From Candidatus Enterousia sp. (GTDB taxonomy: Bacteria; Pseudomonadota; Alphaproteobacteria; Rs-D84): a stretch of 58,167 nucleotides of DNA. Positions 8,409-23,635 of the stretch are shown one piece after another (position 1 is the first letter of the stretch; every line of letters begins with the position of its first letter). The DNA lies in assembly GCA_045645725.1 (NCBI GenBank), contig JAZRJG010000022.1, positions 1 to 58,167 of the forward strand. The letters are read 5' to 3'. The translations under genes were made by a program, and so were the position numbers. A model generated the notes under the pieces. That model was not told the origin of the DNA, did not search any database, and worked only from the letters and a program-made list of their open reading frames with translations.

Positions 8409-8553
8409 AGCGTTCGTATTATAAAAAATGAGTTTCGGTATGTCTAGTGTAAAAGAATATGAAAGAAAATTATATTTTTTTAATTTTTACGTTGACATTT
8501 ATAATTAAAATGTATAAAATACGTTCGCTTTCATGATGAAAGTGCAAAGTTTT

Positions 8554-8629
8554 GGGGTTGTAGCTCAGTTGGTAGAGCACCTGCTTTGCAAGCAGGGGGT
8601 CGTCAGTTCGAGCCTGATCAGCTCCACCA
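8554..8629 (+). tRNA. tRNA-Ala(TGC)
   Basis: Cloverleaf, anticodon arm CCTGC-TTTGCAA-GCAGG, TTCGA T-loop, CCA end. Confidence 0.97.
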
Positions 8630-8708
8630 AAACAAACGAAAGGGGGATTCAAAAAATCCCCTTTTTATAAACAATAAATACAAATTGCGTTAAAGGGGGT
8701 GAATACAT

Positions 8709-8915
8709 ATGGTTAAAGTTCTGGTTCGTGACAACAACGTCGAACAGGCACTGCGCGTCGCAAAACGTAAATCGCAGAAAGAAGGTCTGTACCGCGAAAT
8801 GAAAGAACGTCAGCGTTATGAAAAACCAACAACCAAACGCAAACGTTTGAAAGAAGAAGCCGTACGTAACGAAAAAAAACGTCAATCAAAACAACGTATG
8901 GTTTTCGGATTCTAA
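8709..8915 (+). CDS. rpsU: 30S ribosomal protein S21
   Basis: [18 protein letters not shown]...REMK...YEKP. Confidence 0.95.
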
Positions 8916-8947
8916 TCCAAAATTCAATCCCCCGTTTTGGGGGATTT

Positions 8948-9208
8948 TTATTTTATTACCGCACCTTTTATTATGGTTAAATCTTCTTTGATGTCGTCTA
9001 TCTTTATCTGAATCTGACCAATACCGGTTTCCAATAAGGTCGTGCGATTTTCCAATGATGTTATGCGCGTATCTACGCGTTCCAATTCAATAACAGACAT
9101 ATCTTGGCGCGCAACCCAATATATCAAACCGCCAATAAAAACAATCAAAAACCAATTTTCACGCAGAATTTCAAACATTCCACGCCCCATTGAGATGTTG
9201 CCCGTCAT
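8948..9208 (-). CDS. Small TM + coiled-coil protein at the end of the phage-like operon (XhlA/holin-like)
   Basis: WFLIVFIGGLIYW followed by heptad repeats; ATGA overlap with the upstream gene. Confidence 0.6.
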   Translation of the reverse strand: MTGNISMGRGMFEILRENWFLIVFIGGLIYWVARQDMSVIELERVDTRITSLENRTTLLETGIGQIQIKIDDIKEDLTIIKGAVIK

Positions 9209-9408
9209 TTTTTATCCCCCCGACCGTGTGATATCATGGATTCTATTTGCCGGACCAATGCGCATTGGGCTGCAACCCAGCGCAACCGATTGTCAGATAC
9301 ATCAGGTGACATTACACGATTTATTGTTATATCACGCAAATGCGCCAATACGGCCGCACCAGATGGCGATGAAAAACAGCGCGCATATTGTTGTTCTGTA
9401 TCTGTCAT
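9205..9408 (-). CDS. Bbp19-like phage protein (portal-adjacent)
   Basis: YARCFSSPSGAAVLAHLR...LRWVAAQCALVRQI pattern; ATGA-coupled to the portal gene. Confidence 0.75.
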   Translation of the reverse strand: MTDTEQQYARCFSSPSGAAVLAHLRDITINRVMSPDVSDNRLRWVAAQCALVRQIESMISHGRGDKK

Positions 9409-10640
9409 AATGTTCCCCCCGATACTGTTTCCATTGCGGTCATTTGGGCAATTGGTGCAATGTATTTTAATTCTGCATCACTGTTTAATTTAATACGCGG
9501 TATCAGACCACGACGCGCCAATATCTGTAACCCACGGTCGCACAGCGGACGGATGAATTCATGCAACAATCGTCCATAGGTCGCGCCCAATATACGCATC
9601 ATATCCGCATTACGTGCCATAATTTCCGTGGCAGTCATTTCTTTTTCACTTAACAATCCCAACCTGTCTGCCAATAACGTATGACGAATCCTGTCGCGTA
9701 AATCGGTTAAAATTATTTGCGACACATCAAAATTCGCCCCCGACGCCAATGGTGTTAAGCCCGACGATCCGATGGCTTTTGGTATAATTGCCCCAGGGGT
9801 CAGATTAATATTATTCAAATTTATAACCCCGTCATCGTCGGCTTGCCATATTCCGGAAACAGCAATCGTTGCGTTTTTTAATACCAATTCCACAACTTTG
9901 TTTGCCGTTTTAATATCCGGTAACGCACGCATAACCGGACCACGACCGTATAATTCACCGCTGATTACAGACCAACGAAAGATTATGTATGGATTTGTTT
10001 CAAATGTGCCGGTTGAAACAATGTTGTTTTCCAGTTCACCATCCGTATCAATCCAAGCAGTAAAATCTGTACCAACCAAACTTTGAACCAATGTTAATGG
10101 TGTTTCGGGGTCGCGATGAATCACATCGCGCAATGAAGTCGGCGGCGTCCACGTCGGATAACGTGACATAACTTCGCGCGCCGGCATCGATGTGGTATGA
10201 AATACTGCATTTGGTAATATGGCAATATCTGACATTGGGATTGCCGTAAAATTAAATGCGGACGACGATCCAATTGGAGTTTCAGACATAAATAAACACG
10301 CCGTTCCCAATACCACCAAGTCCATGTAACACTGATGTATCGTGGTGTAAAAATTAGAATCATTCAAGTGCGAACGCAATATATGTGTCGCCATATCAGA
10401 GTCAGGTGATGACACACTTTCGGGAATCAGCGTTAACCACAAAGATTCAGGTGGCGTCATCAATGTGTAAATAGATGCCGCCAGATTATCTGCAGCATCC
10501 GATGCCGTCGCGTCATACAATGTCGCAATGTCATCGTCCGCCGTCGGCATAGCATACCGACGCGCCGATTCCCAACGCGAAAGCCACGGCGCGCGCATAT
10601 CCAACGCACGTTTGTATAATGTTTTTAAATTATTTTGCAT
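9405..10640 (-). CDS. Podovirus head-tail connector (portal), T7 gp8/Bbp21-like, 411 aa
   Basis: YDATASDAADNLAAS, DLVVLGTACL, PYIIFRWSVISGELYGRGPVMRALPDIK, MTATEI motifs. Confidence 0.9.
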   Translation of the reverse strand: MQNNLKTLYKRALDMRAPWLSRWESARRYAMPTADDDIATLYDATASDAADNLAASIYTLMTPPESLWLTLIPESVSSPDSDMATHILRSHLNDSNFYTTIHQCYMDLVVLGTACLFMSETPIGSSSAFNFTAIPMSDIAILPNAVFHTTSMPAREVMSRYPTWTPPTSLRDVIHRDPETPLTLVQSLVGTDFTAWIDTDGELENNIVSTGTFETNPYIIFRWSVISGELYGRGPVMRALPDIKTANKVVELVLKNATIAVSGIWQADDDGVINLNNINLTPGAIIPKAIGSSGLTPLASGANFDVSQIILTDLRDRIRHTLLADRLGLLSEKEMTATEIMARNADMMRILGATYGRLLHEFIRPLCDRGLQILARRGLIPRIKLNSDAELKYIAPIAQMTAMETVSGGTL

Positions 10641-10681
10641 TTTGTTTCCTTTTGTTAAAAACAGGTTATAGGTATAGTTTT

Positions 10682-11521
10682 CTAAACCGAAAAATTTGTG
10701 TTGGCGCAAAAGCGTTGAGGCAAACGGTTGGACGGATATACCGGTACGGGTATTTGCGCAATTGCACCCGCCACCGCATCCAATCCATCATCATGCCCCA
10801 CCCCACCAATCGGTGACCAACCCAACATTTCCGACATCAATGGTGTTTGTTGGGTACGCATATGGGCATACAAACGCCCCGTCGATAATAATGGTTCGAT
10901 GGCATTTAATATGCGATCGGACTTTGATGCATTGTTTGTCACCCTGTGCACATATATGTTCATGGCGCGGCGGTTTGCACAATCACGCATAATTTCCGGC
11001 AGACCACCACCAATACCATTTGTTTCAATTGTTATGCGACGCAGGTTTCGCACATGCATAAAATCCAATATTTGTTCACATTGATTGGATAAAGGATACG
11101 CTTCGTTATCCGACACGGTCAGATATAATATATCGTGGATAAAGACACTATGATTCTTATCATCACGATACAGCAAGACGCAGGCGCTGCCGTCACGATT
11201 ACGACGACCGGTGGACGGATCCCAATACAAAACAGAACCTGTTATAATCGCGTCACCCAATCGGGCGTTACGCACATTAAATTCGTCTGAATAAAAATGC
11301 AGTGCACCGGGGTCCAACCTTATGCGTTCGGGCGAAACAAAATCCAACATCATCTGGGCGGAAAAAGCACGCAGCCCCACCGTTTGACGCATATGTTCAA
11401 TACGTTCAGGCGGAAATAATTCCGGCCACGCAGATTGACCATCCGTATTAACCAACGGAATTTTCAGGGTTTTATACCCAGACAAAAAAGGCGTTGAAAA
11501 TGGATTTTTTTTATATACCAT
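10682..11521 (-). CDS. Terminase large subunit, C-terminal RNase H-fold nuclease half
   Basis: SAWPELFP...FSAQMML, YWDPS, IETNG, HDDGLDAVAGA; start taken at ATG 11521 (alternative 11545). Confidence 0.85.
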   Translation of the reverse strand: MVYKKNPFSTPFLSGYKTLKIPLVNTDGQSAWPELFPPERIEHMRQTVGLRAFSAQMMLDFVSPERIRLDPGALHFYSDEFNVRNARLGDAIITGSVLYWDPSTGRRNRDGSACVLLYRDDKNHSVFIHDILYLTVSDNEAYPLSNQCEQILDFMHVRNLRRITIETNGIGGGLPEIMRDCANRRAMNIYVHRVTNNASKSDRILNAIEPLLSTGRLYAHMRTQQTPLMSEMLGWSPIGGVGHDDGLDAVAGAIAQIPVPVYPSNRLPQRFCANTNFSV

Positions 11522-11543
11522 TGAACCAAAGAAGGATTGTGAC

Positions 11544-13109
11544 ATGGATTTTACCCCTAAAACTTTACCGACCAATTTAGAAGCCGAACAGGCCGTATTA
11601 GCCGCTGTGTTAATGAATAACCGTGCGCTGGAACGTGTGGCGGAATTTTTGCGGTCGGAACATTTTTCACATCCTGCACACCAAGAAATGTTTAAGTTAG
11701 CCGAACGTCAATTTGCCGCCGGCATACCATTTGATATTATTACGGCAAAAAACTATTTAGACCAACAAGGCGTGTTGGAATCGGTCGGTGGTGTTGAATA
11801 TTTAACCAAGTTATCCGGCGCAGGCGCAACCGTCGTTAACGTCGAACAATATGGACGTATCGTTTATGAAAACGCATTGCGTCGCGACTTGATTGCATTG
11901 GGCCAAGACATTATGGACAAGGCCTTTGTCGAAGATTTGGATTCGCCCGTCACACGCCAAATTGAAATCGCCGAACAAAAACTGTTCGATATGGCAACAA
12001 CTGGTTCGTCCGAACGTGAAGTAACATCTATTTCAACCGCGTTACAGACCGCATTGGCCGAAGCAGAAATCGCATACAAAGCCGATGGACAATTATCGGG
12101 TTTAACCACCGGATTGGACGCATTGGATAAATCTATCAGTGGTTTACACCATTCGGACTTAATCATCATTGCAGGTCGTCCGGCGATGGGTAAAACAACG
12201 TTGGCAATGAATATCGCTTTTAATGCGGCAAATGCAATTGCGTACGGTCGCGCAAATCAAAACTATAAAGGCGCAGTGGTGTTTTTCAGTTTGGAAATGT
12301 CTGCGTCCCAATTGGCGGCGCGTGTTCTGTCATCGCAATCAAAAGTACCGGCGTGGGCAATGCGTGAAGGAAATTTGACAGACGAGGACTTTTTGAAAAT
12401 GAGCCAATATTCCGCCGCAATTGGCAAAGTTCCGTTGTTCATTGATGACACGCCGGGGATGTCCGTTCCAATGATGCGCACACGTGCACGCAGATTGGCG
12501 CGCAAACACGGTGGCATCGCGTTAATCGTCGTGGACTATTTACAGTTGATGACATCGCCGGGGGGCAAACACAGCGACAACCGCGTACAAGAAATTTCCG
12601 AAATTACACGTGGTTTGAAAATGTTGGCCAAAGAATTAGATGTGCCGGTGATTTCCCTGTCCCAGTTATCACGTAGCGTTGAATCACGTGATGATAAACG
12701 ACCAATGTTGTCGGACTTGCGTGAATCTGGATCTATTGAACAGGACGCCGACATTGTTATGTTCACGTATCGTGAAGAGTATTATCTGCAAAATCGCGAT
12801 CCGTCGGAAAGATTGTCAAACACCACCAACAATAATATGGTCGAATCATGGCAAAAACGTTTGGAACGCGCACGTGGCAAAGCAGATATCATCATTGGCA
12901 AAAACCGTCACGGCCGCCCAGAAACCGTACGAACCGCGTTCTTTGGCGATTACAGTTTGTTCGATAATTTGGATGAAATGGAGGCGCGCGGCGAAAGCGA
13001 ATACGCACAGCCCGCACCAACAATCACCGCAGCATCATTGGGGCCAGATCCCGAATTTGAACCAACGGCCATTGACCCAGATGCAATCCCAGATGATTTG
13101 CCATTGTAA
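11544..13109 (+). CDS. dnaB: Replicative DNA helicase (host type)
   Basis: P-N-EAEQAVL N-terminus, AGRPAMGKT, FFSLEMS, VVDYLQL, SQLSR, SDLRESGSIEQDAD, YREEYYL, KNRHG. Confidence 0.97.
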   Translation: MDFTPKTLPTNLEAEQAVLAAVLMNNRALERVAEFLRSEHFSHPAHQEMFKLAERQFAAGIPFDIITAKNYLDQQGVLESVGGVEYLTKLSGAGATVVNVEQYGRIVYENALRRDLIALGQDIMDKAFVEDLDSPVTRQIEIAEQKLFDMATTGSSEREVTSISTALQTALAEAEIAYKADGQLSGLTTGLDALDKSISGLHHSDLIIIAGRPAMGKTTLAMNIAFNAANAIAYGRANQNYKGAVVFFSLEMSASQLAARVLSSQSKVPAWAMREGNLTDEDFLKMSQYSAAIGKVPLFIDDTPGMSVPMMRTRARRLARKHGGIALIVVDYLQLMTSPGGKHSDNRVQEISEITRGLKMLAKELDVPVISLSQLSRSVESRDDKRPMLSDLRESGSIEQDADIVMFTYREEYYLQNRDPSERLSNTTNNNMVESWQKRLERARGKADIIIGKNRHGRPETVRTAFFGDYSLFDNLDEMEARGESEYAQPAPTITAASLGPDPEFEPTAIDPDAIPDDLPL

Positions 13110-13202
13110 TCAACGTTGATTTTTGTGTAATAATTTACTTGCGCTGACAACTAAAATTGACTATCATTTTGTCAAGTAATATTCATTTTTAGGAGTTTAC
13201 AA

Positions 13203-14210
13203 ATGGCCCAAGAAGAAATTATCTTTCCAAATAATATTCGTAACATTCGTTTGGCAGCCGGTATGAAAATGACCGAATTGGCGCGTCGTGCAGGTTTGTC
13301 TTTGTCCGCCGTGTCAAAAATAGAGAAAGGCGTTCGCAGATTAAACCAAAAACAGCTGTTGAACATCTGTAACATCTTGGGTTGTAAATTGTCCGATATC
13401 TTTATCAAAGAATCCGACGATGTCGCAAATCAATGGCAATCGGAAATCAAACGCCGTATGAACGACAATGAAGACAGCGGATTAAAAATCTTTGGCAGCG
13501 GATTGCGCAAAATCCGCCAACAATCCGGCAAAACCATTGCCCAGGCCGCAAAACAAGCCGGTATGACATTGTCCGTATATCATAAAATCGAAGTTGGCCA
13601 ACGCGAAATCTATAAAAATGAAATCGAACCTTTGGCGGAATCATTTGCAATGAAGGCCGAAGATTTATTCGCAAAAATTGCAAACCTGTATAAGTCAGGT
13701 GAATTAAACAAACAAATCAACAAGGTAAAAGAACGCGTTAAATCCGTTCTGGAACCCGGGAACCCACTGTCCGGAATCGACGTCAATGGCAGTTTGTATG
13801 GCGCAAAATTATATGACAGCGCACGTAAAAAATTAATCCCTGTGTTCGGTACACCAAATGGCAAAGCAATCGCTTTGAAAAAATCCGATAAAAATATGAT
13901 TGTTGCACCCATCGCATTAGAAGGCAAAAATGGAATCTATGCCGTTATGCCAAACGTCAAAAGATTGGGTGGTATGTTACCGGAAAAATCATATATATTG
14001 GCCGACGCTTTGACACCGGCATCCGTGGGCGATATGGCCGTTTGCATGGACGTGGACTTTGATGCCGTCGACACAGAAGAATCTGTTACCGCACAGGTCG
14101 CCATGATTAAACAAGACGCCAAAGGCAAAGTTTATGCGCAAATATCGGGACCAGATGAAAAAATTACTCCGGTTACCGCACACAAAGTTATCATGATCGT
14201 TATGGAATAA
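13203..14210 (+). CDS. XRE-family regulator with two HTH domains and a C-terminal domain
   Basis: IRNIRLAAGMKMTELARRAGLSLSAVSKIEKG and LRKIRQQSGKTIAQAAKQAGMTLSVYHKIEVGQR. Confidence 0.85.
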   Translation: MAQEEIIFPNNIRNIRLAAGMKMTELARRAGLSLSAVSKIEKGVRRLNQKQLLNICNILGCKLSDIFIKESDDVANQWQSEIKRRMNDNEDSGLKIFGSGLRKIRQQSGKTIAQAAKQAGMTLSVYHKIEVGQREIYKNEIEPLAESFAMKAEDLFAKIANLYKSGELNKQINKVKERVKSVLEPGNPLSGIDVNGSLYGAKLYDSARKKLIPVFGTPNGKAIALKKSDKNMIVAPIALEGKNGIYAVMPNVKRLGGMLPEKSYILADALTPASVGDMAVCMDVDFDAVDTEESVTAQVAMIKQDAKGKVYAQISGPDEKITPVTAHKVIMIVME

Positions 14211-14238
14211 CATAACCGCCCAGCAGGAGAGAGAAAAC

Positions 14239-14877
14239 ATGAAAGCAAAAGCCAGCGCAACCGCATTAAAGTTGATAAACCTGTACCGCCAAGAACACGT
14301 TATCGTTGGCGGTTGGGCGGCATTAAACCCCATTTTCTTGCACGAAGCAACAAATGATGTGTTGGCCGAGATGTCAAACTTGCCCAATGGTCGAAAATTG
14401 GCCCAACATATTCAAAACCTGCGCAGTGGTGTTACAAAAATGGATTCTGTTGAACGCGAATTGTTGCCATATGGTGGCGCAATGGCCGATACGATTACAT
14501 CCGTTAAGCTGACCAATGAACAATGGCACGAATTGGCAAATGGAATCGCCAAATTTACCCCAGACCAACAAGGTTTGGACATGATTCAATCTTTGAACGT
14601 GGTAAAAATGCATGGTGCAGAATGGCCAATCGCAATTAAAAACGCATTGACCACCAGACCAGATTTGCAAAACAAATGGAATGCCGTCATACAAACATAT
14701 AACGCGTACAGAATATGGGACAGCGCAAATGAAATTGTGTCCAACCCTTTGACCGAACGTATATGCGCCCAAGTTCAAGCAGACATACCAGAATATGAAA
14801 CATATTTGCCTATGTTTGGCGATACAGGCGAAGAGTTATTAAAACGTTTAAGAACCTGTATCAGCACAGCAGAATGA
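14239..14877 (+). CDS. Hypothetical protein (212 aa)
   Basis: AGGAG SD, host-like codon use; 3' end overlaps the terminase ATPase gene by 30 nt. Confidence 0.75.
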   Translation: MKAKASATALKLINLYRQEHVIVGGWAALNPIFLHEATNDVLAEMSNLPNGRKLAQHIQNLRSGVTKMDSVERELLPYGGAMADTITSVKLTNEQWHELANGIAKFTPDQQGLDMIQSLNVVKMHGAEWPIAIKNALTTRPDLQNKWNAVIQTYNAYRIWDSANEIVSNPLTERICAQVQADIPEYETYLPMFGDTGEELLKRLRTCISTAE

Positions 14878-15492
14878 ATCTGCGGTTGTGTCATCCGACG
14901 TACGATATATGGTATCCACAGTATGGGGCGTGCCAATATAAATCATACAGCCCGTTGGCGATAAAATAAAATCCAATTCCCGTAATCGTTCACGTAAATC
15001 TGTGCGTTTGCGCAATGTGTTTGATGTGTTTGGGACTTCTATGTCGTCACATATAATTAAATCGGCGCGCATACCGGTTATGTTTCCATGTACGCCTTGG
15101 CATATAACCGACGGTTCGCGAATGCCAATCGGTCGATTTATAGTGATACGGTTTGATGCCCACTGTTTACGATTTTTGGGAATCAAATCTGTGCACCATG
15201 GATGATTTTCCAATATATGACGAATATGTTCAACCATACGCGACGCCAAAGTAGTTTCAGCAGACAAAATTAAAATCCGCGTCGTTGGATATAAATACAA
15301 TATACACGCCGCAAATATTCCGACAACTGTCGATTTGCCCGAATGACGAAATGCCATTAATAAACCACGGTGTGGGGATTCGTTCCATATGCCTACTAAA
15401 AATTCCATAATTCGTCGGTGATGTGCGGGCGTTTTATAACCCAAAACACGATTCCATTCGTCCAAAAAACTATAAAATTCCATAGTCATCAC
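14848..15492 (-). CDS. Terminase large subunit, N-terminal ATPase half
   Basis: Walker A AFRHSGKST, GNITGMRADLIICDDIE (Walker B), coupling motif IYIGTPH, then a stop; start approximate (15492 or 15486). Confidence 0.88.
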   Translation of the reverse strand: MMTMEFYSFLDEWNRVLGYKTPAHHRRIMEFLVGIWNESPHRGLLMAFRHSGKSTVVGIFAACILYLYPTTRILILSAETTLASRMVEHIRHILENHPWCTDLIPKNRKQWASNRITINRPIGIREPSVICQGVHGNITGMRADLIICDDIEVPNTSNTLRKRTDLRERLRELDFILSPTGCMIYIGTPHTVDTIYRTSDDTTADSFCCADTGS

Positions 15493-16021
15493 GATTCTGG
15501 GCGGGCGGCATATCCGATATATAACCATAGTCATTTATCAAAGTGGGTAAAGCAGCATCCAACACCATCAACAAATTACGATACAACCCCAAAACACCAC
15601 CGCCCGACATTTTGTCTGAAATCAAATTTAATGTATAATCTATTAACGATTTAATTTCATCGTGTCGGTTCGACCATTCGGCCGTATCCAATTCAACAGA
15701 ACGCAAATCTTGGAACGCAGCCAATAAAAAATTAAAGTCCGAATTCAAATGTTCTATATCCAGCGGTTGGGTGGGTTGATAATCAATTACACGCGACAAA
15801 GATATTTGCCGAAAAATGTCCATTTCAACCCCCAATCGTGGAGGCGTGTCAAACACAACCATCCCGCCTGAAAAATCGTCGTTTGGCACAATTGAAAAAT
15901 TATATTCCGCATCATCTATAACGCCATCAATGGACACACGTACATCCAATGGTTGAAAAAACGGAAAGGCAAACGGAAACTCGGTCGTTGTGCCATCTGT
16001 GACATATGATATTTTATACAT
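15470..16021 (-). CDS. T7 gp17-like tail-fibre N-terminal adaptor protein (short, 183 aa)
   Basis: YVTDGTTTEFPFAFPFFQPLDVRV...LNSDFN pattern; C-terminal DYG repeats. Confidence 0.7.
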   Translation of the reverse strand: MYKISYVTDGTTTEFPFAFPFFQPLDVRVSIDGVIDDAEYNFSIVPNDDFSGGMVVFDTPPRLGVEMDIFRQISLSRVIDYQPTQPLDIEHLNSDFNFLLAAFQDLRSVELDTAEWSNRHDEIKSLIDYTLNLISDKMSGGGVLGLYRNLLMVLDAALPTLINDYGYISDMPPAQNRDDYGIL

Positions 16022-16036
16022 AGTTGTCCCCACAGT

Positions 16037-16384
16037 TTATATATTTAATTCATCCAATCTGTCCAACCATTTCTTTAAGATATTAGGTTTAGACACTTTG
16101 ATTTCTTTTAATTTTCTGGTATTTGATTTGCGTTTTTCGTCATATGGCGCAACCGTTTCGGCCCGTAACCGACGCAATACCGCACCGGCGGTTACACCGT
16201 CGTTTGAAACCCCAGACGCACCGTATTTCGCACGTTGTGTTGCCAAGACCTTTTGCAGCAGGTTTGTTTTTTCTGCTTCATCCGCAGCCATTTGTGCCAA
16301 GATTTCTTGGCGTTGGTTTTTGGCCACCTTTTTGTCTTGCCTGTAATTCAAAACGTCTGTGACGTCTGATACTAATTGTCCCAT
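16037..16384 (-). CDS. Small internal-virion-like protein
   Basis: LATQRAKYGASGV motif and position after tail tubular B. Confidence 0.55.
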   Translation of the reverse strand: MGQLVSDVTDVLNYRQDKKVAKNQRQEILAQMAADEAEKTNLLQKVLATQRAKYGASGVSNDGVTAGAVLRRLRAETVAPYDEKRKSNTRKLKEIKVSKPNILKKWLDRLDELNI

Positions 16385-16423
16385 GATATATCCTTTCTGT
16401 TGATAAATTGTGATTATTAATAT

Positions 16424-18139
16424 TTATGCGTCATATGAACCATACGTGGTGACCGATAATATTGTTACAGGTTTGGAATCGGTACCATGCAATGTCCACA
16501 AAGGCACAATCGAATCTGTCGTGGTCCCCAGCAAACCAACCGACACATCGCCAGAGTAGCCCGCACTGTCATTTGATTGAACCGAATTTGGCAAAACAAT
16601 ACGATGATTGTTAATTGATAATGACTTTGTGTTTGATATTCGCGCGGTTACTTTGCGGATACGTTGTCTGCGTGCATTATGATGCCCAATGCGCAATGGC
16701 AATCCCGATGCCACAAATGAAAATGGATACCCCGCCCCGTCGCACAGTGTGTCATAATCAAAACATTCTAAAAATACTTGGTTATGCCGGCGAACCAATA
16801 CATAGGTTTTGCCACCACACACACCAACAGATAAAAATTCACCGGCGGTCGTATATTGGCCCCATGCCGATATGCCCAAAGACGAATTGTAATTTAATAC
16901 CGCCATTGCACCATCTGAACGCACAACAAATAATTGACGCACTGTGTCGTTATACGCAATATCCACCGGTGAAAACAACAAATGCTTGGACATTGGACAC
17001 AGGTCTGTGGCGTTATAGCGTTCGCCAAAATCATCCAAAGCCAATTCACGAATATCAGAACCTGTGCGTGATATAAATACAGTAGAACCCTCTATGCATT
17101 GGGGTGGCAAATGTCGTGACGCAAACGATCCAACCGATGTATGTTGACGTATATCGATTGAAGATGGGGTTAACGGAACAGTTGATATAGCCCATTCCCC
17201 AACATTGGTTAATATTTGCAGACCATCACTGCTGACCACGGTACAGATATGTTGGCGAACCTGTGACTGTAACGAAACAAATATTGCTTCATCATCCAAA
17301 CCGGTACCCGATGAAAAATCTGAGTGACGTCCAACATGCGACATCCATATGCCACATGGCCAGCCACGCGAACCACCAAACACCAATCTGTCTTGATGAA
17401 ATGTAATACTGTATGGCCAACCACGGCGTTTACCAAATGCACACTCGGTCCAATCGGCCACGGATTCAGACGGCAATGAATACGTACCATTGGTGTTGGC
17501 AACGATTTGGGTTGGACTGATGTATTCAACAATGACCCATTGACGCCCCAACAACTGTAAATAGTCGTCAACGCAATCGGGCGTCCAAAAATCTTGGTTG
17601 GTGGTAAATGTCGCAAAGTTATTACCCGTAGAATTTGCCGAAACAGATATTGTGATATTCGCAGAATCATCAAAGCGAACAAATGGCATATTCAAACTGA
17701 AATCCGTCGGATTGCGCGCAAAACCAAACGATTCTAAATAAAACAATCCGTTTTTATAACGTAAAATTTGTGGTCTGAAATCGGGATGCACAAATATAAT
17801 CGTATCAAAACGTTGGGCATATTGCATACACTGTATTTCATCCAACGTCCACGACGACAATACAGATTGATATCGCGTTCCATCACGATATATGTATATA
17901 TATCCGGCCTGTAACACAATCAGATATTCATGATTGTCCGATGTTGTAAATGGTATTAAACGTCCCGCACCACGTAATGTGTCAACCGTGCGCAACCCCG
18001 CCCTGCGTGTCAAACCACCGCCAGATAACACGTCCATATTTTCCAAGCGCGATAATCCATGTATATTATCCGATGAATAAAATTCGGGCGACACCGCGCC
18101 ATGCGCAAATGAATTTTGTGTCTTGATAAAATCTGTCAT
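16424..18139 (-). CDS. Tail tubular protein B / nozzle (T7 gp12, P22 gp10-like)
   Basis: QNSFAHGAVSP...LENMDVLSGGGLTRRAG, RGWPYSITFHQDRLVFGG, AW near the C-terminal beta region. Confidence 0.85.
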   Translation of the reverse strand: MTDFIKTQNSFAHGAVSPEFYSSDNIHGLSRLENMDVLSGGGLTRRAGLRTVDTLRGAGRLIPFTTSDNHEYLIVLQAGYIYIYRDGTRYQSVLSSWTLDEIQCMQYAQRFDTIIFVHPDFRPQILRYKNGLFYLESFGFARNPTDFSLNMPFVRFDDSANITISVSANSTGNNFATFTTNQDFWTPDCVDDYLQLLGRQWVIVEYISPTQIVANTNGTYSLPSESVADWTECAFGKRRGWPYSITFHQDRLVFGGSRGWPCGIWMSHVGRHSDFSSGTGLDDEAIFVSLQSQVRQHICTVVSSDGLQILTNVGEWAISTVPLTPSSIDIRQHTSVGSFASRHLPPQCIEGSTVFISRTGSDIRELALDDFGERYNATDLCPMSKHLLFSPVDIAYNDTVRQLFVVRSDGAMAVLNYNSSLGISAWGQYTTAGEFLSVGVCGGKTYVLVRRHNQVFLECFDYDTLCDGAGYPFSFVASGLPLRIGHHNARRQRIRKVTARISNTKSLSINNHRIVLPNSVQSNDSAGYSGDVSVGLLGTTTDSIVPLWTLHGTDSKPVTILSVTTYGSYDA

Positions 18140-18159
18140 TATATACCCCCAACAAAATT

Positions 18160-18678
18160 TTAATGACGAACATCGATTAAAGAAAATGACGCTATGCCAT
18201 TGTTCGGTGTGGTTGTGCTATCTATGAATTTAGATGTTTGTAATTCAGATTCATATAACGCAACCAATGTACGAAATACAGATTGATCGCCCAATAAAGG
18301 TACACAAAACTCCATCGCCAATCGCGTTGCGGCCAATGAAACAAAATAACTGGGGAACATTTCGGGACCAACACGCACGACCGCCAACACATCTGTGTGT
18401 TCTGTGTCAGATAAAACTTTATCACCCAATATATGGCCATCGGTTTTTATAATACGCAATACATTTGATGGAATTAAAAATTCACCATCGGCATTACGTG
18501 TCAAAGAAATCTGACGGGTTGCAAATCGCCACGGATGAACAGACAGCAAAGTATCCATCACAGAATCAAATAATACGCGCGATAACTTGGCCGCCGCTGT
18601 ATCATCAACCAACGATTGTATTGGTTGTTCACCCAACTTTAACAATGCCATAGAGCATAAATCTATTTTGGTAAGCAT
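18160..18678 (-). CDS. Tail tubular protein A / adaptor (T7 gp11-like)
   Basis: IDLCSMALLKLGEQPIQSL...HPWRFA...LATRLA-type pattern. Confidence 0.85.
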   Translation of the reverse strand: MLTKIDLCSMALLKLGEQPIQSLVDDTAAAKLSRVLFDSVMDTLLSVHPWRFATRQISLTRNADGEFLIPSNVLRIIKTDGHILGDKVLSDTEHTDVLAVVRVGPEMFPSYFVSLAATRLAMEFCVPLLGDQSVFRTLVALYESELQTSKFIDSTTTPNNGIASFSLIDVRH

Positions 18679-18749
18679 ATCCCCCCCATAAAAATTTAGT
18701 TAAATAAAAAACCGACAGCCAATCGGATGCCGGTTTTGTAATTTATATA

Positions 18750-18980
18750 TTAAGCCAATGATGCCGTCGTAACATTTAATTCGGTAATATTAATCTTTTT
18801 AATCGCCGTATTATCAGACGCATTAATCATCACAATATCACCAATATTCATCAATGTTTTTACATCGTTAAAATATCCGGTCGCAGTAATGGTTGCCAAT
18901 GTTTCCGATGCACTGTAATGCCATAAAGTAAATCCGTTTGCATATGCAATCACAGACAAATTTTTATTTTGAAATGCCAT
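18750..18980 (-). CDS. Small capsid-adjacent protein (possible decoration/cement protein)
   Basis: MAFQNKNLSVIAYANGFTLWHY...GYFN...GD pattern; directly downstream of the capsid gene; function inferred. Confidence 0.65.
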   Translation of the reverse strand: MAFQNKNLSVIAYANGFTLWHYSASETLATITATGYFNDVKTLMNIGDIVMINASDNTAIKKINITELNVTTASLA

Positions 18981-19002
18981 GTATATTACCCCTTTGGTTT
19001 AA

Positions 19003-19830
19003 TTAAGCAGATACAGAATCCGAACATTTAATGCGAACGATTCCGTTATTATCAATCAAGACCGCGCCTTGGGACATACTGTTGCTGATAAAGTGCGCGG
19101 CACGTTCGCCATGCCATGAAATATCTGTTTTAACATCTTGGCCACACGCATGACCAACGGCGGACGAATGATAAATAAAGCAATCACGATTATCATCGGT
19201 CACAGGCAAACCGTTATACAAAACCCACGTGATACCCAACCATTTGCGCGATTCAAAACCATTTAACATTGGACCATTGTCGCCAACAAAGTCAGCAGAT
19301 GTAAATTCTGCCATTGACAATAATGCGTTCCATTGATTTACACCAACAACCGCAAAACGACGACCATCATCGGGGACATCGTTTGTATTCAAAACCGCAA
19401 CAGCCGATAAAATCAAATCTTTGGTTAATGGCGCAGCATAATCACCAACCGCGGTGGTTGCAGTATCCATTGCATTAACAATTAATTCATCTGTTTTGCG
19501 ACCCAACGCATATGCCCCTGCAGACGCAACGACACGACGTTCATCAATATTTGTTTTTAATTCATCCAATGCGTCAACCCAATCACCGGCATAATAATCC
19601 GACAACGCACATTCAACAGGTTCATGATTCAAATTCATAACCGGCACAATACCATGACGTGATTTAGTACTGGCGATACCACGACCAACTTTTTGAAACG
19701 TGGTGGACGCACCAATAACACCCGATTTACTGCGAACAGTGGAACGTAATTTCGTCCCCATTTGCTGATATGCCAAATGCACATCGGCTTCGAATTGTTT
19801 CACGAAGACATTATCTATGGAAACAGACAT
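19003..19830 (-). CDS. Major capsid protein (podovirus HK97-fold type), 275 aa
   Basis: FVKQFEADVHLAYQQMGTKLR, DELK, AYALGRKTDELI, FTSADFV, WLGITW, MSQGAVLID. Confidence 0.88.
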   Translation of the reverse strand: MSVSIDNVFVKQFEADVHLAYQQMGTKLRSTVRSKSGVIGASTTFQKVGRGIASTKSRHGIVPVMNLNHEPVECALSDYYAGDWVDALDELKTNIDERRVVASAGAYALGRKTDELIVNAMDTATTAVGDYAAPLTKDLILSAVAVLNTNDVPDDGRRFAVVGVNQWNALLSMAEFTSADFVGDNGPMLNGFESRKWLGITWVLYNGLPVTDDNRDCFIYHSSAVGHACGQDVKTDISWHGERAAHFISNSMSQGAVLIDNNGIVRIKCSDSVSA

Positions 19831-19861
19831 ATAAAAATCCTTTGGTTAAAAAATGAAAAAA

Positions 19862-20002
19862 GATGTCGTACGACATCCGTTAAATATTTTTTATTTTTCG
19901 GTTATGCAAAAATGCGCCGACAAACAAAAAGTATTCAGGTCCAATTTTTATGGATTGTCTGATAAAAAAATCAGTTGGACTGTGCACGATTATCCAACTG
20001 AT
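19862..20002 (-). promoter_or_regulatory. Structured 5' leader of the capsid gene (three bulged hairpins plus a 16-bp palindrome)
   Basis: Hairpins at 19970-20002, 19935-19962 and 19898-19920; palindrome GATGTCGTACGACATC 19862-19877. Confidence 0.55.
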
Positions 20003-20061
20003 AATTTTATTAAACAAAAGCCCCCAAAGACGGGGGCCAAATCATAATAAATTAATAATGA

Positions 20062-20547
20062 TTATTTTTTCTTTGCGCATGCTTTTTTTGCACATGGCTT
20101 TTTTGCACATGGTTTTGCAGCAACTTTTTTCGCACATGCTTTTTTTGCAACTGGTTTCGCAGCAACTTTTTTAACCGCTGCTTTTTTTGCAACTGGTTTT
20201 GCAGCAACTTTTTTTGCAGCCGGTTTCGCAGCTGGTTTTTTAACCACTACTTTTTTCGCGGCTGGTTTTGCAGCAACTTTTTTCGCAGCAGGTTTCGCAG
20301 CAGGTTTTTTAACCACTACTTTTTTTGCAGCTGGTTTTGCAGCAACTTTTTTTGCAGCCGGTTTTGCAGCAACTTTTTTCGCAACCGGTTTTGCAGCAGG
20401 TTTTTTAACCGCTACTTTTTTTGCTGCTGGTTTTTCTGCTGCTTTTTTTGCAACAGGTTTTTTAACCGCTGCTTTTTTTGCAACTGGTTTTTCTGCTGCT
20501 TTTTTTGCAGCAACTTTTTTAGATGGTCTTAAAAATGAAAATGCCAT
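20062..20547 (-). CDS. Histone H1-like Lys/Ala/Pro-rich DNA-binding protein
   Basis: Tandem KKVAAKPAA-type repeats over ~150 aa; AAGGAG SD; hairpin after the stop. Confidence 0.85.
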   Translation of the reverse strand: MAFSFLRPSKKVAAKKAAEKPVAKKAAVKKPVAKKAAEKPAAKKVAVKKPAAKPVAKKVAAKPAAKKVAAKPAAKKVVVKKPAAKPAAKKVAAKPAAKKVVVKKPAAKPAAKKVAAKPVAKKAAVKKVAAKPVAKKACAKKVAAKPCAKKPCAKKACAKKK

Positions 20548-20652
20548 TATTCTCTCCTTTAATAGTTTGGATAGAACAAATCCGTTTTGTTCTTACTGTG
20601 CATTTTATCGAAAATGCGAAACATAGTAAAGAAGAAAGTGTGTTTTTTTTCA

Positions 20653-21309
20653 TTATGAATATAATTTTTTAAAACCATTTTCTATTTTTCTGATGTATTC
20701 AATATCATTATCACGCCAATATTTTGGATCGCGCATCATTGAACGTAAATCTGCATCTGTTAAATTTTGTATTGAATTTTTTTCGGTGTGAACATTTGGT
20801 TCCATTGTTTGCATCATCTTGTACACGCTTTGAATTCCGCGGGGTGTGGCACACAATGAATCAAATGCATCACGTGGTAAAAATCGTTCACCAAATGTTT
20901 GTATTGCATGTAATGCATCATTCATTTTTTCTTCGCCACCAAAATAATTTCTTAATTCATTAATCGAATTTGTTTGCGAATTAACAGAAAATATTTCACA
21001 CAATATTGGTGATAAAAATTCGTTTGCAATATCATAAATTTTTTCAACCTGACCACAGGTTAAACCAATATCTAAAAATTTTTCACGCAATTTTTCATCA
21101 TCATATATTTCATGCGTCGGGTATTCTGATGCAGTTTCCGGAACACCAATCGCACGATTAAATTTTTGTCGCACATCGGTGTCACTGTCATCCGTTGGTA
21201 TTGATACCATTGTGCCAATCTTTTTTTCTAATTCTTTGTACGATTTCATTAAAGCATCGGAATTTAATGTGCCATCTGGGTTCAAAAATTTTTCAGGGAT
21301 GTTATCCAT
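20653..21309 (-). CDS. Capsid assembly (scaffold) protein, T7 gp9-like
   Basis: IPEKF...LMKSYKELEKK N-terminus, MRDPKYW...F..LY C-terminus. Confidence 0.8.
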   Translation of the reverse strand: MDNIPEKFLNPDGTLNSDALMKSYKELEKKIGTMVSIPTDDSDTDVRQKFNRAIGVPETASEYPTHEIYDDEKLREKFLDIGLTCGQVEKIYDIANEFLSPILCEIFSVNSQTNSINELRNYFGGEEKMNDALHAIQTFGERFLPRDAFDSLCATPRGIQSVYKMMQTMEPNVHTEKNSIQNLTDADLRSMMRDPKYWRDNDIEYIRKIENGFKKLYS

Positions 21310-21499
21310 TTCTTTTCCTTTTGTTTTCATTGGAACGACGTAAAAAATATATGCCACCAAATGCAAATATCGATTGCAGTGTGGTAAACAAATCTGAATC
21401 ACCAACCAAATATGCACCCACCGCCGTCAATATGCCGGTCGCAGATAAAATATATGTGCGATAGCCACAAAGATGACCACCACGAATTATCTTGTTCAT
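21302..21499 (-). CDS. Putative holin (two TM helices, basic tail)
   Basis: GYRTYI...GAYLVGD...GIYFLRR + KRKR; next to a cell-wall hydrolase; overlaps the scaffold start. Confidence 0.65.
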   Translation of the reverse strand: MNKIIRGGHLCGYRTYILSATGILTAVGAYLVGDSDLFTTLQSIFAFGGIYFLRRSNENKRKRNG

Positions 21500-21511
21500 G
21501 TTAATTGCCCA

Positions 21512-21898
21512 CTATAAATAAAACAGCATTCCATCAATATCTGCAATATAACCACGCGATGTGGCCCAATCAGGTATGACATCACCATGGTGAAACATCG
21601 TTGCGCCACAGCACATATCCGGCAGCACACCGGTTAACATACGACGCGCAACACGAACGCACATATCAAAGCGATGCGCAACCATATCCCCAGACGCATA
21701 TTTACGCGAAAAGATATCTGATTTATCTGTCACCTGTTCAATAGTCATACCCGATTTATCCGATAAATTTTTTATCATTGATGTTAATGCTTCGACCACA
21801 GGTAATGTTTTGCCGCCCGTTTCATAATAGACCGTACGCGCAACTTTATATGCCAAACATTCGGACGTATCCGTTTGTGGAATTAATGCCATAATCAT
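21512..21898 (-). CDS. SleB/Hydrolase_2-like cell-wall hydrolase (putative endolysin)
   Basis: ARTVYYE catalytic-Glu motif; GATMFHH..V.PDWA...IDGMLFY. Confidence 0.7.
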   Translation of the reverse strand: MIMALIPQTDTSECLAYKVARTVYYETGGKTLPVVEALTSMIKNLSDKSGMTIEQVTDKSDIFSRKYASGDMVAHRFDMCVRVARRMLTGVLPDMCCGATMFHHGDVIPDWATSRGYIADIDGMLFYL

Positions 21899-22041
21899 TT
21901 TAATTTTGCCTTGGGTTATAAAAAAAATCACGCCAAGGCGTGATTAAATTAAAAAAACCACAACGATGTTGTGGATACTATTTGTGCTGTTTATGGTCAT
22001 AATATTAACATAATTTTGACAAAAAGTCAAGTGTTTTATTT

Positions 22042-22722
22042 TCAAACACTGATTTCATCACCAAAAACCAACAAATATCGCGTATCACGGCGCAATACCA
22101 AAGCACCATTTTCATTAATGCCAACCAATACCGCCGGTTCACCACGATATAAAATCGGTTTGTCCAAGCACGCCGCCAATTCTGTCCAACGTTGACGAAC
22201 CGCACGAAAATCCGAACGACGCCATTTATCCAAATTGCGCATTAATCGATTCAACAATTCTGTCATTGGTATTTCCGAATAGTTTTCCAATTTTGTCGTA
22301 CGATAACGATCAACAGTTGGGTTGGAATTCACGTTTATACCAATACCAACAATTACAAAACGACCCGAATATTCAATTAAAGTACCCGCAACTTTTTTAC
22401 CATCAACCAATATGTCGTTGGGCCATTTAATTGTGGGATGAATACCAAAAGATGCAATAGTTTCCGCCATTGCAACGGCCACCGCATATGACAAACGCGC
22501 ATCACGTTCGGGGCACGCGAATATAAAACTGACATACAAATTACCATGATGCGAAACCCATTTACGACGAAAACGTCCGCGACCGGCACTTTGCGCAGCC
22601 GCCAAAATCGCCATATGATCCGATGCACGCCCAGACGCAATCATTTCGTGCGCCGTGTCTTGGGTGCTGGGGATTTTATCAAAAGATATTAATTTATAGC
22701 CCGCCAATTTTATATACCCCAT
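22042..22722 (-). CDS. birA: Biotin-protein ligase (no HTH)
   Basis: STQD, QSAGRGRFRRKWVS, GNLY, IKWPNDILVDGKKVAG, GIGIN. Confidence 0.95.
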   Translation of the reverse strand: MGYIKLAGYKLISFDKIPSTQDTAHEMIASGRASDHMAILAAAQSAGRGRFRRKWVSHHGNLYVSFIFACPERDARLSYAVAVAMAETIASFGIHPTIKWPNDILVDGKKVAGTLIEYSGRFVIVGIGINVNSNPTVDRYRTTKLENYSEIPMTELLNRLMRNLDKWRRSDFRAVRQRWTELAACLDKPILYRGEPAVLVGINENGALVLRRDTRYLLVFGDEISV

Positions 22723-23113
22723 TAGTATTTAGTATAAAATCATGACCGTACATACGACGCAATTGATAAACCGCCGTATCAACCACATGCGTCGTCGCAT
22801 CAGGAGAATACCCCAGTGCAACTTTCAAATCCGCCGCAGACATCCCACCGGTTTTATATAACAAAACCAATAATTCAGATTGAATTCGTGATAAAGATAC
22901 AGATTCTCCAAAAATTTTGGCCAAAACACGACCGGAATCCGCCGCATCCAGCACCAAGGACTTTAATTGCAATGGTGTCATTGGGGATTTTATGTCCAAA
23001 TCATCAAAATTCAAATCGGTTAAAGTCGCATCGCCCAGAACAGTTGCGCCAAAATCGGTTAAAATTTGTCGCCAAATATTATCTGATGTATAAATACGTA
23101 CGCCGGATAACAT
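22694..23113 (-). CDS. OmpR/PhoB-type winged-helix domain protein
   Basis: LGYSPDATTHVVDTAVYQLRR...GVY C-terminal motif. Confidence 0.7.
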   Translation of the reverse strand: MLSGVRIYTSDNIWRQILTDFGATVLGDATLTDLNFDDLDIKSPMTPLQLKSLVLDAADSGRVLAKIFGESVSLSRIQSELLVLLYKTGGMSAADLKVALGYSPDATTHVVDTAVYQLRRMYGHDFILNTNGVYKIGGL

Positions 23114-23201
23114 GTTTTATATTGTAAACCACTTAAATCCCAATGTCTATAAAAAAACCACAGTGATTAAATTTACTGTGGTTGTGTGGTTCAAAATGTA
23201 T

Positions 23202-23450
23202 TCAAACATGCGATGCGGTGTCTGGTTCATCGATGTATTTCGTAAAATCTTGAATTTTGGAACCTGTGGACGCCAATATCTTGGAAATACTGTTGGTGGA
23301 CGGCCATCGGGGCTGACCTTCTTTGGACCAACGTTTGCTGCGATTAAAGGTTGTGGGATCAAGACCACTGCACTTTGCCAGACCAGAACAAGACATACCG
23401 TGTTCGTTTGCAAAGCGTTCAATGGCACGCCAAACTTCATCATGTGTCAT
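23202..23450 (-). CDS. Alphaproteobacterial HTH repressor N-domain (lacks the S24 domain)
   Basis: HDEVWRAIERFA...SGLAK.SGLDPTTFNRSKR...RWPST.SI.KIL signature. Confidence 0.85.
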   Translation of the reverse strand: MTHDEVWRAIERFANEHGMSCSGLAKCSGLDPTTFNRSKRWSKEGQPRWPSTNSISKILASTGSKIQDFTKYIDEPDTASHV

Positions 23451-23635
23451 TTTTTATCTCCATTGTTTTAGATACTGGGGCATTAATTTGTCGCACAGTT
23501 TACATTGATTTTACGCAATACTTTTAGCACAAACAATAAGTACCATTTCCTAGTTTATGGGACAAAAAAATTATACTAAAAAAAATTTTGACAAAACACT
23601 TGACGAATCGATTTTTGTATACTATATTCTTAATT

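Follow-up and report, generated by a model that had tools for sequence, protein, structure and literature searches.

Why would a bacterium with a genome of 0.95 Mb (93% complete) keep the head, tail, packaging and lysis genes of a T7/pelagiphage-like podovirus among its core genes? The question is raised by a minus-strand module at positions 8948–21931 of a 58,167-nucleotide stretch of DNA (contig JAZRJG010000022.1 of assembly GCA_045645725.1; the whole stretch is called the window, and its coordinates are used throughout) from a Candidatus Enterousia-like member of the order Rs-D84. One paper assigns Enterousia to this uncultured order and ascribes reduced genomes to all of its members (PMC12306168). 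A preliminary description, made from the letters of the window, had proposed a domesticated, vertically inherited particle module resembling a gene transfer agent (GTA) rather than a recent prophage. That the module is domesticated, under selection and vertically inherited we now regard as nearly certain. That it still makes DNA-filled particles appears fairly likely; judgement on whether it acts as a gene transfer agent is evenly poised. As a whole, the locus is best read, with moderate confidence, as a domesticated, GTA-like, podovirus-derived particle system.

The case for inheritance begins with the distribution of the module. Its capsid gene was found in 295 of the 328 genomes of the order, in 242 of the 256 genomes of the genus and in 211 of 224 high-quality genomes, which covers 28 of 30 genera and 6 of 6 families (f1, the family containing this genome, and f2–f6, the other five); presence is near-universal rather than patchy. 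Five genomes without a capsid match were examined, and one of them has a portal gene. Among the four with neither gene, two also have no dnaB, and the locus is therefore unassembled there. G292 has the host block and no module genes within 16.5 kb, and in G144, a species of the same genus that amounts to a natural deletion mutant, dnaB, the helix-turn-helix (HTH) gene and the open reading frame (ORF) p212 are followed by 3.9 kb of unrelated ORFs and then by birA (locus L205, G144:C14, 7454–11365, 1–4090).

Selection and phylogeny tell the same story. The ratio of nonsynonymous to synonymous substitution rates (dN/dS; NG86 method, pairs with dS<1.5) is 0.06–0.30 for all 14 module genes, the same range as for host genes, and pseudogenes are almost absent: a true internal stop codon was found in one of 80 capsids (L031) and in no other module gene, and in one HTH gene (L015), the remaining stops within matches falling at ORF ends. 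A tree of seven module genes and a tree of dnaB, birA and p139, built for 56 taxa, are congruent, sharing 37 of 53 bipartitions against a mean of 0.2 and a maximum of 2 in label shuffles; the within-family Mantel correlation is 0.80, and 0 of 999 permutations were as high. No match to the integrase family PF00589 was found on the contig, nor any att-like repeat, nor a polymerase in the module, as the preliminary description had stated for integrase, att and replication genes. Integration at the nearby tRNA-Ala was considered and rejected, there being no direct repeat of the tRNA end and a best inverted match of 79% over 28 nt. Synteny in 80 loci, prevalence, dN/dS and congruent trees together bear out vertical inheritance as opposed to a recent prophage.

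Gene calls in the module were made from the ORF list and from Pfam and PHROGs profile searches, and every ORF in 8948–21931 is accounted for. The module and its immediate surroundings read as follows:

23205–23450, minus strand: 82-aa Cro/CI-type HTH protein (HTH82); Pfam HTH_26, E 5.5e-4, below cut-off
22694–23113, minus strand: 139-aa host ORF (p139), weakly winged-helix-like; weak MarR matches
22042–22722, minus strand: BirA-type biotin ligase catalytic protein, host; BPL_LplA_LipB, E 3e-18
21512–21931, minus strand: cell-wall hydrolase, endolysin candidate; Hydrolase_2, E 9e-4 (below cut-off), and phrog_938 endolysin, E 3e-6
21302–21499, minus strand: 65-aa small hydrophobic membrane-like ORF (p65), holin candidate by position only
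20653–21417, likely start 21309, minus strand: T7 gp9-like scaffold; PF05396, E 2.6e-6, 28.4 bits (cut-off 27.1)
20062–20547, minus strand: 161-aa K/A/P-rich basic protein with AKKPAAKK-type repeats; PF07382 HC2, E 1.8e-11
20019–20038, 19971–20002 and 19861–19878, minus strand: capsid leader with three terminator-like hairpins, a T-run after each
19838–19843, minus strand: ribosome-binding site of the capsid gene, AAAGGA
19003–19830, minus strand: major capsid protein; PF19821, E 2e-71
18750–18980, minus strand: 76-aa capsid-adjacent protein (p76); phrog_18004, E 1e-13
18712–18726, minus strand: terminator-like hairpin at the boundary of capsid operon and tail genes
18160–18678, minus strand: tail tubular protein A (tubA), gp11-like adaptor; PF17212, E 8e-5, and phrog_394, E 6e-29
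16424–18139, minus strand: tail tubular protein B (tubB), gp12-like nozzle; phrog_376, E 1e-74, and PDB 8ck1 'Tail Nozzle', E 7e-32
16037–16384, minus strand: 115-aa protein (p115); weak matches to phrog_418, E 0.0018, and PF24072 T7_gp14, E 0.017
15470–16033, minus strand: 187-aa short fibre/adaptor with T7 gp17 N-terminal domain; phrog_1640, E 4e-9
14848–15534, likely start 15489, minus strand: N piece of the large terminase subunit (TerN); phrog_38 positions 272–459, E 9e-40
14239–14877, plus strand: 212-aa ORF (p212); no relatives in Pfam or PHROGs and no usable match in an Atlas search
13203–14210, plus strand: 335-aa double-HTH_3 protein; Pfam
11544–13109, plus strand: dnaB; Pfam
10682–11575, likely start ATG at 11545, minus strand: C piece of the terminase (TerC); phrog_38 positions 468–707, E 1e-35
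9405–10709, likely start 10640, minus strand: portal of T7 gp8 type; PF12236, E 5e-83, and PDB portals
9205–9408, minus strand: Bbp19-like small protein; PF25181, E 4.5e-8
8948–9208, minus strand: 86-aa protein with transmembrane segment and coiled coil (p86), lysis accessory candidate; weak XhlA matches, phrog_1193, E 0.002, and PF10779, E 0.034
8926–8946, bidirectional: terminator-like hairpin closing the module against rpsU
8709–8915: rpsU
8554–8629: tRNA-Ala

Every gene named in the preliminary description was recovered at its position on the minus strand, and the 4-nt start/stop overlaps at 9205/9208 and 9405/9408, the neighbours rpsU and birA and the dnaB gene inside the module were all found in place. 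Two of its labels need qualification: the 65-aa ORF is present, the name 'holin' being a guess from position with no family match in the Pfam and PHROGs searches, and the terminase is present as two ORFs, with a 3.3 kb plus-strand block between them, instead of as a single gene; this is the locus's most unusual trait and matters for the question of whether packaging still works. Overlooked at that stage were the K/A/P-rich ORF, HTH82 (outside the coordinates then considered), p212, the double-HTH_3 gene and the terminator-like hairpins. The hydrolase probably starts at 21898, because a terminator-like hairpin at 21926–21945 overlaps the longer ORF. In other loci, stop codons within the scaffold matches fall before residue 55. 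The flanks consist of core genes, namely an ABC transporter, rpsU, birA, priA, miaA, gap and rne (RNase E/G).

Synteny was assessed by searching 80 species-level loci with 23 proteins of the window (tblastn). One gene order was found wherever the contig is long enough, with the exception of L062, in which the birA/p139 pair is inverted. It runs from PriA through p139, BirA, hydrolase, p65, scaffold, capsid, p76, tubA, tubB, p115 and, where present, the fibre to TerN, the reversed p212, HTH and dnaB genes, TerC, portal, Bbp19 and p86. The BirA/p139 stretch keeps this order in 64–65 of the 80 loci, the remaining loci ending earlier; p76 is present in 80/80, p115 in 77/80 and p65 in 65/80. Median identity to the window is 84.9% for the capsid, 85.5% for p76, 80.7% for the portal and 76.8% for TerN, and, for the host proteins, 86.4% for DnaB and 75.2% for BirA. 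The dN/dS values are lowest for capsid (0.063), p76 (0.065) and portal (0.079), followed by TerN (0.11), p65 (0.14), TerC and tubB (0.17 each), tubA (0.18), scaffold (0.21) and hydrolase (0.30), with host values of 0.06 for dnaB, 0.14 for birA and 0.26 for p139.

How deep the inheritance reaches was judged from one genome of each of the other five families. Identity to the window there is 62–69% for the capsid, 39–43% for the portal, 43–52% for TerN, 29–36% for TerC and 27–40% for tubB, with 40–56% for DnaB. Each family has its own rearrangement of the layout: the two terminase ORFs lie side by side in f3, f4 and f6, 174–335 nt apart; TerC comes after the portal in f2; TerN is directly followed by the portal in f5; and ftsZ and an AMIN+Amidase_3 (AmiC-type) amidase gene lie between TerC and portal in f6 (L098). 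These comparisons place the vertical inheritance of the module at least as far back as the ancestor of Rs-D84. Pilin-like genes with an N-terminal methylation motif adjoin the module in f3, f4 and f6 (L098 3780–7970; L097 12350–13276); the pilin-like genes of the present genome are located on other contigs (C23:22263–22721, C21:27436–27912).

Within Rs-D84 the large terminase subunit comes in two pieces. In the window TerN and TerC are separated by the 3.3 kb plus-strand block of dnaB, the double-HTH_3 gene and p212. Alignment with one-piece relatives (487–501 aa) puts the break directly behind the C-motif (GTPH), in a loop whose length varies, and thus inside the ATPase fold and not at the linker between ATPase and nuclease. 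TerN thus carries Walker A, Walker B and the C-motif, and TerC the remainder of the ATPase fold together with the RNase H-like nuclease. TerN has S-G-K-S (Walker A), C-D-D.E (Walker B) and G-T-P-H unchanged in all 25 sequences compared, which come from five families, and W-D-P-S, E.NG.G and DD..D in the nuclease of TerC are likewise invariant. TerN is a separate ORF of 202–213 aa in one genome from each of the six families, and outside Rs-D84 the terminase is a single ORF of 487–501 aa. By this comparison the split is common to the whole order and the dnaB insertion is confined to family f1, where the arrangement of the dnaB block is identical in every locus reaching it; dnaB and the double-HTH gene have other locations in the remaining five families.

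The dnaB ATG and the likely TerC ATG overlap in CATG at 11543–11546, and the ribosome site of each gene therefore falls within the first codons of the other; at the other end of the block, TerN and p212 share a 4-nt overlap of their stop codons in 40 of 75 loci. A phage origin of this dnaB was rejected, because it is the sole DnaB_C match of the genome, its tree tracks the family labels and it lies far from the module in other families. The double-HTH protein was likewise rejected as a module regulator, since its homologues in the other five families are far from the module. It is conserved at 75–92% within the genus and 34–42% across the order, stands beside dnaB only in f1 and probably belongs to the host, having been relocated along with dnaB.

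Several routes by which the two pieces could be rejoined before translation or as protein were considered. For an intron or splicing across the gap, no known intron family was found, an Rfam E-value scan of 8000–23500 giving the tRNA-Ala only. A split intein was rejected: TerN extends only about 17 residues past the homologous part, and in the alignment to full-length relatives no gap is left between the two pieces. Excision and rejoining of the DNA was looked for in contigs of four runs from four studies over 8400–23200: none of the four listed contig joints skips the 3.3 kb block, although a rare excised form could escape contigs. A listed contig spans the p212/TerN junction in three of the four runs (X1, X2, X5) and the TerC/dnaB junction in two (X1, X2). 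One X1 contig carries 581 extra letters in the 41-nt spacer between the TerC stop and the portal start (10642–10683), a strain-level insertion. A structural model of the TerN–TerC complex reached a score of 0.84, with 0.00 for the best control, and sets TerC residues 11–23 as a strand on TerN residues 41–47; contact agreement between runs was at least 85% and partner pLDDT at least 77. Among solved complexes 58 of 80 attained 0.84, as did 2 of 110 mismatched pairs; with own alignments as input, these counts apply only approximately here. Because single-chain terminases have solved structures, which the model may mirror, such a pass indicates likeness, not binding.

The best PDB match of the capsid is 9eg4_A (E 9e-23), the capsid of the LME-1 phage; AlphaFold modelled the protein poorly, with a mean pLDDT of 56.6, and the fold search served only to name 9eg4, already known from the sequence search. 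The small p76 weakly matches 9eg4_H orf16 (E 0.0097; seven chains in the capsid entry) and is a probable short decoration or cement protein, and p115 is possibly a gp14-like small internal virion protein, both of its matches being weak. In each of 66 loci (66/66) scaffold and capsid have the K/A/P-rich ORF between them. This ORF varies in length from 83 to 175 aa, with a K+A+P fraction of 0.59–0.84, has a conserved MAF-type N-terminus, occurs in family f2 too and is histone H1/HC2-like in composition. Its product might serve as a cargo that condenses DNA, or it might be a nucleoid protein of the host trapped in the module.

Candidate regulators are found at the edge of the module and elsewhere. 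HTH82 occurs in 63 loci at 81–93% identity, about 114 nt before the next gene. It is 48–63% identical to module-adjacent ORFs in L183, L190 and L187 and in 10 IMG/VR contigs, and those of L190 and L183 are 210–213 aa proteins of HTH+Peptidase_S24 (LexA/CI) type. HTH82 is thus homologous to the HTH domain of S24-type repressors in other orders, its protease domain having been lost from the Enterousia copy, and it is a candidate module-linked regulator. It has paralogues elsewhere in the genome at C38:2062–2280 and C8:7569–7781 (64% and 40% identical). A 113-aa ORF at C4:669–1010, with no family match, is homologous to the small ORF between repressor and portal in L187 and L190 and is a possible detached module regulator. 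On the host side, the BirA-type ligase consists of the catalytic domain only and is overlapped by 29 nt by p139, which may be the detached BirA DNA-binding domain.

Terminator-like hairpins divide the module and, counted per sequence and against shuffles, are conserved far beyond the shuffled level. The stretch 76–260 nt upstream of the capsid holds one or more of them in 79 of 80 loci and two or more in 76 of 80. A hairpin falls within the last 75 nt before the capsid ATG in 43 of 80 loci (shuffles, mean 0.9) and in the p76–tubA spacer in 62 of 79 (shuffles, mean 2.4). The arms vary in sequence among species while the pairing is kept. No consensus pairing emerged when RNAalifold was applied to 35 capsid leaders, since hairpins of unlike sequence become misaligned. 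In Caulobacter, a GTA cluster is known to be controlled by anti-termination (PMC11150451).

A further search of the whole genome by tblastn, with the module-region ORFs of 14 other bacterial loci, gave no further module-like gene; its matches were the pilin-like genes (C23, C21), an endolysin-like ORF (C40) and the 113-aa ORF (C4). The endolysin-like ORF (C40:20625–21380; L202 3625–4381; phrog_7, E 5e-31) lies among small ORFs away from the module.

Is the module restricted to Rs-D84? In an even sample of the Alphaproteobacteria (401 genomes), the capsid gave matches at E<=1e-10 in 87 genomes and, among the 400 genomes other than the present one, at E<=1e-80 and 48–83% identity in 64 (three of them Rs-D84). 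These strong matches are nearly all single-copy and clustered by family, several families having three matches among at most three genomes seen and many listed families none of three. In a phylum sample, all matches of at least 56% identity fall within the class, the best outside it reaching 29–32%, and PF19821 had no match in 14 control genomes. From 61 strong matches, 22 loci outside Rs-D84 were chosen by hand, with complete genomes and multi-member families favoured; ORF calls are noisy in the high-G+C loci. The related loci span about 9–13 kb and hold an HTH/S24 repressor, small ORFs, portal, scaffold, capsid, tubA, tubB, a short fibre, a one-piece TerL and a hydrolase, all without the big internal proteins of the nearest phage. 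Their G+C content (38–70%) is like that of their hosts, and wherever their surroundings were tested, housekeeping genes lie there (efflux pump, pyrD, HAD hydrolase, GGDEF protein, Na/H exchanger). In one genus, both flanks are common to two species, with a module that has no adjacent portal or scaffold, and in one other family 4.7–5.4 kb of other ORFs lie between module genes.

With DnaB as the single host marker, co-divergence extends to this wider set. Capsid and DnaB distances among 31 taxa correlate at a Mantel r of 0.785, with 0 of 999 permutations as high (r 0.76 for pairs outside Rs-D84), and in 454 of 465 pairs it is the capsid that has diverged less. Of 28 bipartitions, 15 are common to both trees, against a mean of 0.13 and a maximum of 1 in shuffles; deep ones are among them, such as the Rs-D84 clade, Rs-D84 with four low-G+C families, and f92+f97. 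Compared with DnaB in the same way, tubB gave r 0.75 and 11/26 bipartitions, TerL r 0.79 and 8/21, portal r 0.79 and 7/13, and tubA r 0.67 and 14/28. In a 69-row capsid tree the branch of Pelagibacter phage Hodr measures 2.28 against 0.1–0.9 for the bacterial copies. In IMG/VR, 355 contigs carry this capsid, the region being flagged as viral by the pipelines. We tentatively propose, with slightly less than even confidence, that the Enterousia module is a branch of a second ancient, vertically inherited, podovirus-derived particle system of Alphaproteobacteria, unrelated to that of Rhodobacter capsulatus (RcGTA), and that Rs-D84 then gained the two-piece terminase and f1 the cell's only dnaB in antisense, which would wire production against replication.

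In the best reading, an ancestral T7/pelagiphage-like phage lost its replication, integration and large internal-core genes, and the remnant kept scaffold, capsid, decoration protein, portal, adaptor, nozzle, gp14-like protein, short fibre, terminase and lysis genes. If the module works as a GTA-like system, it might operate as follows. A rare subpopulation of cells would transcribe the minus-strand module past the internal terminators. Because TerN and TerC are on the same strand, reading through to TerC, portal, Bbp19 and p86 would have to proceed antisense across p212, the HTH gene and dnaB, and particle production would therefore oppose dnaB expression. TerN and TerC would reassemble by strand complementation, and the heads would fill with any DNA at hand, i.e. 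host DNA, without sequence choice, because no small terminase is recognizable. The hydrolase and the small membrane proteins would then lyse the cell and release short-tailed particles. In known gene transfer agents, recipients import the DNA through ComEC/DprA. Here the DNA may reach the periplasm only, because gp15/gp16-type core proteins are lacking and there is at most a gp14-like protein, and import would then fall to ComEC and DprA, which are retained in the genome.

Several observations weigh against this reading. The split lies inside the ATPase fold, and translocation activity may be gone from the two-piece form; with the query used, the single f5 genome searched (G027, 99% complete) gave no TerC. 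No small-terminase candidate was found: the phrog_31793-type ORF (about 100 aa) that directly precedes TerL in other orders, and is there a small-terminase candidate by position, is absent here. The fibre gene is absent, p115 abutting TerN, in 19 of 75 loci, the 187-aa fibre comprises the N-terminal domain only, with no long receptor-binding part, and large ejection proteins were not found in the module; delivery of DNA into a recipient is doubtful for these reasons. ComEC and DprA are both widespread genes and count weakly. The nearest solved capsid entry has seven chains per asymmetric unit, and, by this analogy, if T=7 and the size were kept, a head could hold more than the 13 kb of the module, so that the classical GTA criterion 'too small for its own genes' might fail. 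Finally, at least one lineage (G144) shows a clean loss of the module, which is hence dispensable.

The alternative that survives best, which we consider unlikely, is a domesticated particle with a non-transfer function, be it programmed lysis and DNA release, a PBSX-type killer or defective particle, or a decoy against related phages. It would accommodate the loss of the fibre, the missing ejection proteins and small terminase, the lysis cassette that has been kept and the LexA/CI-like S24 repressor that stands beside the module in other orders. Strong purifying selection on TerN, TerC and portal points instead to DNA packaging, ComEC and DprA are kept in a genome of 0.95 Mb, and killing needs a receptor-binding part, which is precisely the part being lost. 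Much less credible is an inert remnant, persisting through interleaving with essential genes such that deletions are dangerous and selection on the neighbours slows decay. Essential dnaB does lie inside the module, as does ftsZ in L098, but linkage does not lower dN/dS, and yet all 14 genes show purifying selection, with the single capsid stop among 80; the capsid is, moreover, less diverged than DnaB in nearly all pairs, and G144 lost the module while dnaB, the HTH gene, p212 and birA stayed. This explanation is close to refuted. Structural genes kept for a DNA-free particle or compartment, with the terminase pieces repurposed, seem similarly improbable: the break in the ATPase fold, the missing TerC of G027 and the highly basic K/A/P-rich protein would suit such a use, whereas the catalytic residues of ATPase and nuclease are invariant, and portal, adaptor and nozzle, needless for a closed compartment, are conserved. 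Least probable of all is a real provirus or phage satellite as called by automatic pipelines, since the IMG/VR contigs (many about 10 kb and cut at the capsid or HTH gene) and a 5 kb faecal 'Bacteriophage sp.' record with a 65%-identical capsid are outweighed by missing integrase, att site and replication genes, position and gene order fixed in 80 species, essential host genes inside, co-divergence with the host and the missing large internal proteins of the nearest phage.

The GTA-like reading, if right, would have consequences beyond this genome. To our knowledge, only a handful of independent domestications into gene transfer agents are known, and the siphovirus-like RcGTA is the only one with a wide distribution in Alphaproteobacteria. 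A podovirus-type system across an order of sub-megabase gut bacteria, which spend about 1.4% of the genome on the module, would offer a testable route of recombination in lineages thought to be at risk of genome decay. A split terminase kept since the ancestor of the order is a natural experiment on a packaging motor that tolerates a break in its ATPase fold, and the face-to-face starts of dnaB and TerC, with the antisense layout, suggest a simple coupling of particle production to a stop of replication. The system is undescribed in the literature searched, and the class-level comparison, built on one host marker and a hand-picked sample, points to vertical inheritance wider than the order. 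If that proves true, automatic provirus calls mislabel a cellular, organelle-like system, in 355 contigs in IMG/VR alone.

How does the module compare with known systems? The nearest cultured phage is Pelagibacter phage EXVC031P Hodr, with a 42.7%-identical capsid, and both share the order TerL, portal, scaffold, capsid, small capsid-adjacent gene, tubA and tubB. Hodr has one TerL ORF of 501 aa where the module has two, and it carries, past the nozzle gene, genes for two large proteins (783 aa and 1247 aa) as well as about 20 kb of further genes, none of which is in the module; homologues of the two large proteins were not found in the module, Hodr ORFs not having been used as whole-genome queries. 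Unlike Hodr, the module is immobile and co-diverges with its host. A second phage, Legionella LME-1, supplies the best PDB match, capsid entry 9eg4. The module thus has the gene order of a T7/pelagiphage-like podovirus and lacks the single-chain TerL, large core proteins and replication genes of one. It has none of the integrase, att sites and variable positions of an integrated prophage, and it differs from a phage satellite (PICI) in having no integrase or replication genes, in its own adaptor and nozzle and in being near-universal in the order.

A resemblance to SOS-controlled domesticated particles such as PBSX and pyocins may lie in the regulation of the relatives. SOS-induced pyocins and defective phages keep a LexA/CI-like repressor, and pyocins are not known to have a capsid or terminase. 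In other orders an HTH+Peptidase_S24 repressor gene adjoins the structural genes of the module's relatives; the Enterousia homologue is HTH only.

Among the gene transfer agents, BaGTA of Bartonella is a second, independent alphaproteobacterial GTA, which co-diverges with its host and lies near replication functions. Its portal gene is 1863 bp and its TerL gene 1344 bp long, as tabulated in PMC3610622; with a portal of about 1.24 kb and a two-piece TerL, the module differs from it in these gene sizes. In Faecalibacterium prausnitzii, the gut GTA-like element FpGTA is reportedly podovirus-like and said to be the first of that shape, and packaging of host DNA was measured in that study, in which Enterousia and Rs-D84 are unmentioned (PMC12946183). 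Its host belongs to another phylum, and the likeness is one of description. The literature searched (subscription papers and supplements being outside its scope) held no podovirus-type domesticated element in Alphaproteobacteria or Enterousia and no naturally split large terminase, and the terms phage, prophage, capsid and gene transfer agent do not occur in PMC12306168.

RcGTA has an HK97 capsid (PF05065) and a siphovirus tail. The module consists of unrelated gene families, with a PF19821 capsid, a T7-type portal and the tubA/tubB plan of a podovirus; PF05065 was not found in the genome (a Caulobacter control was positive), which upholds the earlier view of T7-like rather than RcGTA-type genes. 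Also unlike RcGTA, it has a two-piece terminase, and no small terminase was found. Like the module, GTAs of RcGTA type are present in reduced genomes (PMC9254644). An RcGTA-like dependence on the competence genes of the recipient is plausible here, with ComEC and DprA both present. What the two have in common is a phage-derived cluster without replication or integration genes, deep vertical inheritance and strong purifying selection; the resident, vertically inherited phage genes of Rs-D84, free of genes for replication, integration and excision, have the sequence-level marks of a GTA (viriform).

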